The position numbers and the translations under genes were made by a program. A stretch of DNA of 64,000 bases from Candidatus Pacearchaeota archaeon (GTDB lineage: Archaea > Nanobdellota > Nanobdellia > Pacearchaeales > GW2011-AR1), in assembly GCA_050303855.1 (NCBI GenBank), contig JBNLCO010000010.1:124093-188092 (forward strand), in the 5' to 3' direction. The notes beneath the pieces are model-generated. The model was not told the DNA's origin. It searched no databases and was given only the letters and a program-made list of their open reading frames with translations. Of this stretch, positions 39,395 to 41,440 are shown in pieces (the first letter of the stretch is position 1; each line of letters begins with the position of its first letter).

Positions 39395-41440
39395 ATGAAA
39401 GCATTGATACTTGCAGGAGGATTTGGTACCCGACTTCAAGGGGTTGTTAAAGATGTTCCAAAACCAATGGCCTCTATTGCGGGAAAACCTTTTTTGGAGC
39501 ATCAGATACGTTATTTGAAAAGACAAGGAATTAACGAATTTATCTTGGGAGTTCATTATAAATCAGATGTCATAAAATCTTATTTTGGCAACGGTATGAG
39601 GCAAGATGTAAGCATAACTTATTCTGAAGAGGATTCTCCTCTTGGAACAGGGGGAGCAATAAAACTCGCGCAGAAATTCATTGACGGGCCATTTTTAGTT
39701 TTGAATGGGGACTCGTATACTGATTTGGATCTGGGCAAATTTATGAGATTCCATGAAAAAAATAATTCTGTTGCAAGCATGGTCTTGCAAAAAATGGAAA
39801 AGGATAATTCCCACTATGGAAATGTTGAATTAGAAGGGGATACAATAAAGAGATATTCCGAAAAAAAATCAGTTGGCAAAGGACTGTCCAATTCAGGAAT
39901 CTATTTATTTGATCAAGAGATATTTGACTACATTCCTGGATCTAAAAAGATTTCTTTGGAAGAAAGAGTGTTTCCTGAACTGGTAAAGAAGGGTGCTATT
40001 TCTGGATTTGTCAACAAAGGTTATTTTGTCGATATCGGAAGACCCGAGACCTATCTTCAATTTAAAAAAGATTTTATTGAGAAATTGCAATCTTCAAAAG
40101 ACATTATTTTAAGAGATGCTATAAAAAAGATGTATGAAAATGGTTCAGACATATTGTTTATGGTTAATGAAGAGAAAGAATTTCAAGGTTTGCTAACAGA
40201 TGGAATTATTAAAAGATACCTAATAAGAGGGGGAGAATTTGAAGCAGGAGTTGATGAAGCCATGATAGAAAAACCAGAAAGGATTGCTACAATAAAAGAC
40301 AGTGAGGATAAAATAAGAGGTTTCTTAAAAGAAGGGGTCAAGAATCTTCCAATACTGGACGAACAAGGAAAAATATACGATATTCGATTTAGAACCGAAG
40401 AGGTAAAAGGAGAAGAATATCCAACCATTAGAGGTAAAACTCCTTTGAGAATAAGTTTTGCAGGAGGCGGTACAGATATGCCCTATTTTTTTGAGAAATA
40501 CGGAGGGGCTGTAATAAGCACAACTATTGATAAGTATTGCAACATTACTGCAAAAAAAAGAGGGGATTCCAAAATCGTAATTAATTCGGATATTTTAGAG
40601 GAGGAAGTGATTTTGGATGCCGGGAATTTAAAATATGATAGAAGTAAATTTGATCTAGTAAAATCAGTATATAATCTTGTAAACCCGGGGTGTGGTGTTG
40701 ATCTCCATTTGAATAATGACGTACCTCCAGGAAGAGGTCTTGGTTCATCTGCATCATTTGCAGTTCTTTTAACTAAAATTTTGGGCAAGCTAAAAGGGAG
40801 TAATTTGAGTGATGAGGAAGTTGCAGAATTTGCTTATAGAGCAGAAGTTGAAGAATTGGGAATAAGAGGAGGCAAGCAAGATCAATACGCTGCAGTATTT
40901 GGAGGATTTAATTGGATGGAATTTGAAAATGGAAATAGAAAAATAATGACATCCCTTAGAATAAAAGAAGATACTTTGAATGAATTGAAAGATCATTTAA
41001 CTTTATGCTACACTGGCAAAGAACATGAATCAATCCATCAACAGAAGTTATTGGAAGACAAATTTAAAAAAGAGAACCAGAGTGCAATTGAAAGGCTAAA
41101 AAGAATGAAACTTAATGCACGAGAAATAAAGAATTATCTTCTATCTCCGACCCCCGATTTTCAAAGGATAGGCGAGATAACCCATAAAATCTGGACAGAT
41201 AAAAAGAAGACTTCTTCGAAAGTAACCAGCAAAGTTATTGAAAACCTTTATGAAGTGGGAATGACTAATGGATCATATGGAGGTAAGCTTTTAGGTTCTG
41301 GTGGGGGAGGCTACTTGTTATTTTTCCATCCTCCAGAAAAAAGGAACAAATTAGAGAGAGGATTATCTCAGGAAGGTGGAGAAATCATGAACTTCAATTT
41401 TACTGAAGATGGTGCCAAGATATGGGTTCCGAACAAATAA
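39395..41440 (+). CDS. tri-domain fusion: sugar-1-phosphate nucleotidyltransferase (HddC/ManC-like) + CBS pair + GHMP sugar kinase (HddA-like)
   Basis: N-terminus [15 protein letters not shown]...KPM. The middle has a CBS-like segment (...[11 protein letters not shown]...[16 protein letters not shown]). The C-terminal half has [36 protein letters not shown]...[14 protein letters not shown] (GHMP motif). Confidence 0.8.
   Translation: [681 protein letters not shown]

Follow-up and report, generated by a model that had tools for sequence, protein, structure and literature searches.

A predicted heptose kinase and nucleotidyltransferase joined through a CBS pair in a Pacearchaeota glycan gene island

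Results

A single gene is predicted to encode three domains

We examined a stretch of 64,000 nucleotides (the window) from Candidatus Pacearchaeota archaeon (assembly GCA_050303855.1, contig JBNLCO010000010.1, positions 124,093 to 188,092 of the forward strand). An island of glycan genes in the window contains one open reading frame (ORF) with an ATG start that is predicted to encode a protein 681 amino acids long, comprised of an HddC-like nucleotidyltransferase at the N-terminus, a central CBS pair and an HddA-like GHMP kinase at the C-terminus (Table 1). We refer to it as the tri-domain gene. A preliminary description of this DNA had called the same ORF; its boundaries match ours exactly and all of the peptides it quoted are present in the translation. 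Pfam placed NTP_transferase at residues 2-226, GHMP_kinases_N at residues 421-504 (71.9 bits) and GHMP_kinases_C at residues 587-660 (23.2 bits). The AlphaFold model of the full-length protein had a predicted local distance difference test score (pLDDT) of 88.1 and a predicted template modelling score (pTM) of 0.83, and a Foldseek search with this model found the tri-domain arrangement in no solved chain. Mis-assembly, a frameshift fusion and a chance ORF are ruled out by at least 117 independent full-length homologues of constant length. All three domain assignments of the preliminary description hold, the central one by way of a family profile and the predicted fold.

The first 230 or so residues had been described as a sugar-1-phosphate nucleotidyltransferase, in agreement with the Pfam match and with NCBIfam, where the top family for residues 1-225 is HddC (NF049965, 197.3 bits). 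The runner-up is a ManC-type GDP-mannose enzyme (NF052502, 171.8 bits). This part of the model superposes on HddC from Y. pseudotuberculosis with a target template modelling (TM) score of 0.88 (Foldseek). HddC enzymes carry the motifs GXGXR and EXXPLGTGGA, and Glu80 of the Y. pseudotuberculosis enzyme hydrogen-bonds N1 and N2 of guanine (PMC6981941). Both motifs occur in the window protein, as G9FGTR13 and E79DSPLGTGGA88, and the motif residues E79, P82, T85, G87 and A88 are invariant among homologues. The invariant glutamate of the guanine motif, E79, supports a predicted use of GTP by the transferase half. The EXXPLGTGGA motif is common to HddC and to GDP-mannose pyrophosphorylase (GMPP). 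Scores do not separate these two families, and only the gene context would favour HddC.

The C-terminal 330 or so residues had been described as an HddA-like GHMP kinase, and our searches bear this out. The top NCBIfam family for residues 344-677 is HddA (NF049969), which matched at 245.8 bits over model positions 2-336 of 338; fucokinase (75 bits), galactokinase (69 bits) and mevalonate kinase (68 bits) families scored far less on this half. Among PDB chains the closest kinases by phmmer were Cj1425 from C. jejuni (4n3o, 212 bits), WcbL from B. pseudomallei (191 bits) and a B. thetaiotaomicron protein (3k85, 186 bits), with galactokinase at 56 bits and FKP/fucokinase at approximately 48-51 bits. 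The kinase domain of the model superposes on WcbL with a target TM score of 0.87 (Foldseek). The preliminary description had considered that the kinase might group with galacto-, mevalonate- or fucokinases, and it is instead nearer to heptose kinases in both sequence and fold. In WcbL, activity is abolished by the substitutions R13A, D22A, Q162L and D163A and by a triple mutant of S118-120, and free mannose has been found bound in the sugar pocket (PMC4691232). The WcbL residues R13, D22, S118-120, Q162 and D163 correspond to R352, D361, S451/S452/A453, Q495 and D496 in the window protein, and these positions are invariant in 42 homologues and in all three related architectures. Judged by sequence, the kinase half clearly belongs to the heptose-7-phosphate kinase (HddA/WcbL) family, and its predicted activity is the ATP-dependent phosphorylation of heptose-7-phosphate at O1.

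The central segment had been read as a CBS pair. In the window protein itself the Pfam CBS family (PF00571) scored 16.3 bits at residues 238-276 in the whole protein and 22.3 bits when the linker was searched alone, which is below the gathering score of 24 bits. A single-sequence phmmer search of the PDB did not detect the pair; only the family profile detected it. Across 117 full-length homologues the linker hardly varies in length (125-128 residues), and all 46 of the aligned linkers matched PF00571 (best E value 6.4e-13). In the PDB, a profile of the linker family had no matches other than CBS proteins (E values down to 1e-19), over profile positions of approximately 10-115 that cover both repeats. 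The window's own linker was modelled with a pLDDT of 87 as two successive beta-alpha-beta-beta-alpha units, and in Foldseek this model matched only CBS pairs, with TM scores of 0.7-0.78 over approximately 110 columns. These included OpuCA, MJ0922, the Bateman modules of IMPDH, MJ0100, the regulatory domain of human CBS, and MgtE, such that the fold resembles Bateman modules that bind ligands. The pair keeps its length and its conserved positions over approximately 50% sequence divergence. When the canonical ribose-binding 'GhhT/SxxD' motif was sought by eye, the Asp position appeared to be shifted in both repeats, which is an unreliable test from which we draw no conclusion. Given the constant length, the 46 Pfam matches, the PDB profile and the fold model, the linker is a true CBS pair. 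Its role is most likely that of a nucleotide-binding allosteric module, a dimerization module, or both, that would gate an ATP-consuming committed step.

The architecture is widespread in DPANN archaea

A word-indexed protein search returned 669 matches. Among the best 120 of these, which we examined, nearly all were 670-690 residues long with approximately 100% coverage and 47-71% identity. Those with a named source came from metagenome-assembled genomes (MAGs) of Nanoarchaeota, Pacearchaeota or Woesearchaeota, all DPANN. They are currently labelled 'NTP transferase domain-containing', 'CBS domain-containing' or, by JGI, heptose-7-phosphate kinase. We also ran an exhaustive HMMER search of 1.84 billion representatives clustered at 50% identity and counted architectures among the best 150. 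The full-length tri-domain form accounted for four representatives (P0030, P0122, P0123 and P0129) plus fragments. Seven were direct fusions of nucleotidyltransferase and kinase, 552-602 residues long, with a linker of approximately 12 residues and no CBS pair. Two-domain proteins of approximately 450-470 residues with a CBS pair and a kinase made up 41, and 74 were stand-alone kinases. One distant tri-domain cluster, at 33% identity, includes a protein from a Rhodospirillaceae MAG. Scanning GTDB genome contigs with the single protein yielded one true relative only, from a Nanoarchaeota MAG; a Promethearchaeota NTP-transferase match in that scan was unrelated to the tri-domain protein. The tri-domain architecture is thus abundant in DPANN archaea, narrow in diversity (about four clusters at 50% identity), and has arisen more than once.

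No description of an HddC-HddA fusion or of a CBS-bearing GHMP kinase was found in the literature that we searched, in line with the preliminary description, according to which no such fusion with an interposed CBS module is known to have been described. That description had also raised the prospect of an architecture already common and characterized. It is common in databases, and no characterization of it was found. The parts and the pathway are known, pathway enzymes are often found fused, and the architecture is already present, generically named, in hundreds of database entries.

Other fusions of heptose enzymes were seen in the metagenomic loci, including NTP-transferase with GmhB (442 residues, L057), NTP-transferase with GmhA (432 residues, L067) and GmhA with GmhB (345 residues, L025 and L038). 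Direct HddC-HddA fusions without a CBS pair are found among proteins P0126-P0134. The bacterial-type tri-domain gene P0129 (ENA ERZ1305449) encodes 700 residues and has a cluster-mate at 90% identity, P0270, from a Rhodospirillaceae MAG. It is followed directly by a gene for a PHP-family phosphoesterase, which may replace GmhB at that locus, and it clusters with ATP-grasp, formyltransferase, AP_endonuc_2 and NeuB genes.

The gene arose by in-place fusion with an upstream hddC

We called ORFs in 80 metagenomic loci and searched them with domain hidden Markov models built from the family alignment and with iterated GmhA and GmhB profiles. Three forms of the kinase were found. The first is a stand-alone HddA in classical hddC-hddA-gmhA-gmhB operons. 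The second is CBS-HddA with a separate hddC of approximately 235 codons abutting upstream, in the order gmhB-hddC-CBS-hddA-X-gmhA, and the third is the tri-domain gene. The separate HddC tiles residues 1-224 of the window protein and CBS-HddA tiles residues 239-677, and at locus L058 hddC and CBS-hddA overlap by the stop/start sequence ATGA. In a neighbour-joining tree of the kinase domains (midpoint-rooted, without bootstrap) all of the CBS-bearing kinases formed one clade apart from the stand-alone HddAs. The DPANN tri-domain proteins were monophyletic in this tree, and a soil tri-domain protein (L015) nested inside the two-domain clade. The gmhB-hddC-CBS-hddA loci, the tiling and the clade therefore indicate that a kinase subfamily carried the CBS pair ancestrally as its N-terminal module, and that the window gene is an in-place fusion of CBS-hddA with the upstream hddC. 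The CBS pair does lie between the two catalytic halves, as the preliminary description had it, but it was not newly interposed there. The fusion arose when the stop codon that separated neighbouring hddC and CBS-hddA genes, whose translation was coupled, was lost.

The two-domain relatives have a further partner. A gene of approximately 630 codons encoding a fusion of NeuB, SAF and a xylose-isomerase-like TIM domain (NeuB-TIM) lies directly downstream of CBS-hddA in 26 of the 34 two-domain loci, which are from marine and soil metagenomes, giving the operon order gmhB - hddC - CBS-hddA - NeuB-TIM - gmhA (Table 1). At L058 and L084 this is followed by genes for a CMP-type cytidylyltransferase and a class IV aminotransferase. 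NeuB-TIM was found directly downstream in one of 37 stand-alone HddA loci and in none of 15 tri-domain loci. These 15, the window among them, had no NeuB homologue at all, and NeuB was also not in the Pfam lists of L088-L090. These CBS-HddA/NeuB operons may mark an undescribed heptose-derived ulosonic-acid pathway. The linkage hints at an ancestral pathway whose end product may be something other than a simple GDP-heptose, and it tempers extrapolation from the sister clade to the tri-domain proteins. It does not run contrary to a heptose-phosphate route, since the two-domain loci also have gmhA and gmhB.

Pathway genes accompany the tri-domain gene at some loci

In the canonical order of the pathway GmhA acts first, followed by HddA, GmhB and HddC, and C. 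jejuni has its gmhB apart from the heptose cluster (PMC10680097). The preliminary description was correct in this respect: it had HddA and HddC catalyse steps that do not follow each other, with the GmhB phosphatase in between. We counted gene context over 16 distinct tri-domain loci. A GmhB-type HAD protein with the PNK3P/Hydrolase_like signature is encoded at most 100 bp from the tri-domain gene in seven of them (L003, L005, L008, L011, L013, L089 and L090). The gmhA gene adjoins the tri-domain gene in L005 and L089, and it is nearby in three of the 16. The gmhA of the window belongs to the same glycan island as the fusion gene, 10 kb upstream of it, and is 62% identical to the SIS gene of L005. 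The gene run that follows gmhA in the window encodes a GDP-mannose-dehydratase-like SDR, a GT10 glycosyltransferase, an HAD-IA hydrolase and a thiamine pyrophosphate (TPP) enzyme. The SDR is a candidate GDP-heptose 4,6-dehydratase.

The HAD-IA hydrolase is the sole candidate for the 7-phosphatase within the window, and a speculative one. As an orthologue of GmhB it was rejected, with no GmhB equivalog match and no similarity to the GmhB of relatives, and it has no homologue in the other tri-domain loci. The closest relative (L088, identical with L001; 69% identity) has an HAD-IA gene 68 bp upstream of its tri-domain gene that is unrelated both to GmhB and to the window HAD-IA.

In DPANN loci a gene for a TPP-dependent enzyme is repeatedly found beside gmhA or the tri-domain gene. 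The relatives have a split pair, transketolase-like or of the E1_dh type, and the window has an enzyme of the acetolactate-synthase type. The TPP-dependent enzyme could supply sedoheptulose-7-phosphate or add two-carbon branches to sugars. In the Pacearchaeota MAG locus L090 an extra stand-alone NTP-transferase gene precedes the tri-domain gene (L090:9271-9975), and an HldE-type gene (PfkB plus CTP_transf_like, 512 residues) stands at the locus edge (L090:21608-22055). Enzymes of GDP- and ADP-heptose type may therefore coexist in this one DPANN genome.

The gene lies in a probable N-glycosylation island

The island starts with genes for an AglH-type glycosyltransferase and an AglB/STT3 oligosaccharyltransferase (Table 1). 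It also holds DegT, several SDRs, methyltransferases, transferases of the GT2, GT4 and WecG types, an asparagine-synthase-like gene and a flippase. Such contents fit an archaeal N-glycosylation locus and are consistent with the synthesis of an N-glycan, the presumed destination of the product. Among archaeal N-glycans, there is a report of heptose for one, from Thermoplasma acidophilum (PMC11407970).

Several neighbouring features were recorded. The last 32 nucleotides of the fusion gene are shared with a 301-codon ORF at 41409-42314 (+), for which neither Pfam nor NCBIfam gave a match; this ORF probably forms a transcription unit with the fusion gene and with the methyltransferase, GT2 and asparagine-synthase-like genes that come next. 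Directly upstream of the fusion gene on the opposite strand lies panB (ketopantoate hydroxymethyltransferase, 307 bits, 38311-39168), and it is odd, in a reduced genome, to meet a gene of the coenzyme A pathway inside a glycan island. SecY (16267-17661) and an EMC3/TMCO1-like insertase are encoded just upstream of the island. A tRNA of 88 nucleotides at 51444-51531 (-) scored 57.5 bits with Rfam and was reported by ARAGORN as 'tRNA-???' with the anticodon 'tc' and none assigned; this archaeal tRNA may contain an intron. A 5S rRNA stands alone at 53264-53379.

Table 1. Features of the window and of related metagenomic loci (window coordinates unless a locus is named)
Feature	Coordinates	Strand	Evidence
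Tri-domain gene, HddC-like nucleotidyltransferase + CBS pair + HddA-like GHMP kinase	39395..41440	+	ORF, ATG start, 681 aa, Pfam/NCBIfam, AlphaFold
N-terminal sugar-1-phosphate nucleotidyltransferase, HddC/GMPP-like, predicted GTP-using	39395..40078	+	aa 1-228; PF00483, 121 bits
Central CBS pair (Bateman module)	40088..40414	+	aa ~232-340; family profile and fold
C-terminal GHMP kinase, heptose-7-phosphate kinase (HddA/WcbL) family	40424..41425	+	aa 344-677; NF049969
gmhA, sedoheptulose-7-phosphate isomerase, pathway step 1	28695..29279	+	TIGR00441, 201.3 bits (cut-off 209.45)
GDP-mannose-4,6-dehydratase-like SDR, directly after gmhA	29306..30286	+	PF16363, 255.6 bits; best NCBIfam TIGR01472 gmd, 159 bits, below cut-off
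HAD-IA hydrolase in gmhA gene run	31346..32002	+	Pfam HAD_2/Hydrolase
AglH-type GT4 (Glycos_transf_4), island start	20650-21636	+	PF00953
AglB/STT3 oligosaccharyltransferase, 913 aa	21674-24415	+	PF02516, PF21436
TPP enzymes	window 32062-33849; L003:12034-13795; L088:4704-6466; L090:4592-6351; L005:12045-13241; L089:13818-14966		
CBS-HddA/NeuB loci	L058:3815-10629; also L024, L033, L037, L074, L084 and 20 further loci		

Discussion

A predicted bifunctional enzyme of GDP-heptose synthesis

In the tri-domain protein a CBS module likely links the two enzymes of the GDP-heptose pathway that use nucleotides. What we observe are the domain identities, the conserved catalytic and base-recognition residues, the origin by fusion and the linkage to gmhA and gmhB; from these a specificity for heptose and GTP is predicted. 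The best explanation, and in our view a probable one, is a bifunctional enzyme for steps 2 and 4 with the CBS pair as an allosteric or dimerization module. According to this model, GmhA would turn sedoheptulose-7-phosphate into the 7-phosphate of D-glycero-D-manno-heptose (step 1), and the C-terminal GHMP kinase would use ATP to phosphorylate O1, giving the alpha-1,7-bisphosphate (step 2). A separate phosphatase would then remove the 7-phosphate (step 3). In many relatives this would be the product of the GmhB gene abutting the fusion gene; here it would be encoded outside the window or by the HAD-IA gene. The N-terminal transferase would finally join heptose-1-phosphate and GTP (step 4). Neighbouring enzymes would probably modify the product by 4,6-dehydration, amination or methylation before it passed to the glycosyltransferases of the AglB-dependent N-glycosylation island.

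Several observations weigh against this model. The HddC and HddA scores of the two halves both lie far below the NCBIfam equivalog cut-offs of 300 and 600 bits, and in PDB searches the transferase half scored 138 bits with HddC (6jq8/5xhw) and 134 bits with GMPP. In the kinase tree the CBS-bearing clade stands apart from the characterized HddAs Cj1425 and WcbL, so the identity of the kinase substrate is an extrapolation. About half of the tri-domain loci have neither gmhA nor gmhB within the available sequence. No canonical GmhB was found in the 64-kb window, where tblastn with the GmhB proteins of two relatives was negative, and the phosphatase step is the unproven link in this genome. The lack of a GmhB in the window is not disqualifying, because gmhB of C. 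jejuni also lies outside its heptose cluster (PMC10680097). Lastly, both the sister two-domain clade and the bacterial tri-domain gene P0129, which neighbours NeuB and AP_endonuc_2, are tightly linked to NeuB-type synthases.

Alternative functions

The first alternative is a salvage route like that of FKP, with two consecutive steps. The kinase would act on O1 of a free heptose or hexose taken up from a host or the surroundings, and the transferase would turn the resulting sugar-1-phosphate directly into the NDP-sugar, with no role for GmhB. The reduced metabolism of DPANN archaea would suit salvage, as would the window without GmhB and the several tri-domain loci with no gmhA or gmhB nearby. 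The composition of NTP-transferase and GHMP kinase is also that of Bacteroides FKP, and WcbL binds free mannose in its sugar pocket. We nevertheless consider salvage unlikely, since GmhB abuts or overlaps the gene in the seven loci listed above, gmhA occurs in the window and next to the gene in two relatives, the kinase is far nearer to heptose-7-phosphate kinases than to fucokinase (245.8 versus 75 bits), and FKP superposes poorly, with a root-mean-square deviation (rmsd) of 28.6.

A second alternative is that one part of the protein has been misread, such that the N-terminal domain is a ManC-type GDP-mannose pyrophosphorylase and the kinase alone belongs to the heptose pathway, or that the CBS pair is a degenerate structural spacer. 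HddC and GMPP score nearly equally (197 versus 172 bits in NCBIfam, 138 versus 134 bits in the PDB) and share the EXXPLGTGGA motif. For a spacer one can cite the sub-threshold CBS match of the window protein and the seven clusters of direct fusions that have no CBS pair. Against the first part, the separate hddC of the two-gene relatives sits between gmhB and CBS-hddA, which argues that it serves the same pathway; against the second, the constant length, the positions conserved over approximately 50% divergence and the confident fold point to selection beyond spacing. We regard both parts as quite improbable.

Very unlikely, finally, is the same chemistry directed to another end product, an activated heptose or hexose precursor for a NeuB-type ulosonic acid pathway, as suggested by the NeuB-TIM, cytidylyltransferase and aminotransferase genes of two-domain loci and by the neighbours of P0129, given that no NeuB homologue was found in the 15 tri-domain loci examined or in the Pfam lists of L088-L090 and that the DPANN context consists of SDR dehydratases/epimerases, DegT, radical-SAM enzymes and glycosyltransferases.

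The bifunctional GDP-heptose enzyme also admits a bolder extension, which we hold to be possible but doubtful. The CBS-HddA lineage could represent the first allosterically gated entry to nucleotide-heptose synthesis, with a Bateman module that would respond to the GDP-sugar product or to nucleotides of adenine or guanine and would switch the kinase and, in the fused protein, the guanylyltransferase coupled to it, and could serve the modification of DPANN N-glycans with modified heptoses; or the fused enzyme could dispense with GmhB where none is nearby.

If the assignment to steps 2 and 4 is true, the GDP-heptose pathway, so far characterized only in bacteria, extends to DPANN archaea, and heptose-containing N-glycans would be indicated on the surfaces that DPANN symbionts use for host contact. 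The CBS pair suggests an undescribed regulatory input into heptose synthesis. Current understanding is not overturned; the annotation of these proteins is refined, and the system is a modest variant of a known pathway.

Comparison with known systems

Bateman modules occur on other enzymes of activated-sugar synthesis. The arabinose-5-phosphate isomerases KpsF/GutQ (SIS plus CBS; PDB 4o9k and 3k2v, both matched by the linker profile) carry one, as do the CBS-nucleotidyltransferases of the PtmE type, of which one representative, P0253, was found. These differ from the window protein in their catalytic partners and in domain order. FKP (L-fucokinase/GDP-fucose pyrophosphorylase from B. fragilis; PDB 9iit and 5yys) resembles it in having an N-terminal nucleotidyltransferase, a C-terminal GHMP kinase and a GDP-sugar product, but FKP lacks a CBS pair and salvages a free sugar in two successive reactions. 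The FKP family (NF009948) matched only the kinase region, at 75.4 bits against a cut-off of 721. The two proteins differ in how their domains are arranged; the rmsd given above is that of the full-length superposition.

The separate HddA and HddC enzymes share with the two halves their folds, the best family matches, the essential kinase residues, the glutamate motif for guanine binding and, at some tri-domain loci, the linkage to gmhA and gmhB. The window protein differs from them in being one polypeptide with a CBS pair between the halves, in scoring below the equivalog cut-offs, and in having a kinase of the CBS-bearing clade. Its host is an archaeon and its context N-glycosylation, whereas the known enzymes serve bacterial capsule, lipopolysaccharide and S-layer glycan. 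The two-domain CBS-HddA proteins with an upstream HddC (L058, L024 and L084) are direct relatives, collinear with the window protein, with the same CBS-kinase module and the same gmhB-hddC-CBS-hddA order. They differ in being encoded by two genes and in the NeuB-TIM gene that usually follows (26/34 loci), which the DPANN tri-domain loci lack.

The closest functional parallel is HldE, a bifunctional heptose-7-phosphate kinase and heptose-1-phosphate adenylyltransferase of the ADP-heptose pathway. Its kinase role in that pathway has been described (PMC4691232). In HldE the same non-consecutive steps 2 and 4 are fused, with GmhB acting between them. HldE, however, is built from unrelated folds (PfkB/ribokinase and cytidylyltransferase), makes a beta-anomer ADP-sugar, has the kinase first and carries no CBS pair; Pfam found no PfkB or CTP_transf_like match in the 681-residue protein. 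The tri-domain protein is thus an analogue and not a homologue of HldE, and would be a second, independent instance, convergent with HldE, of steps 2 and 4 fused in a heptose-nucleotide pathway.

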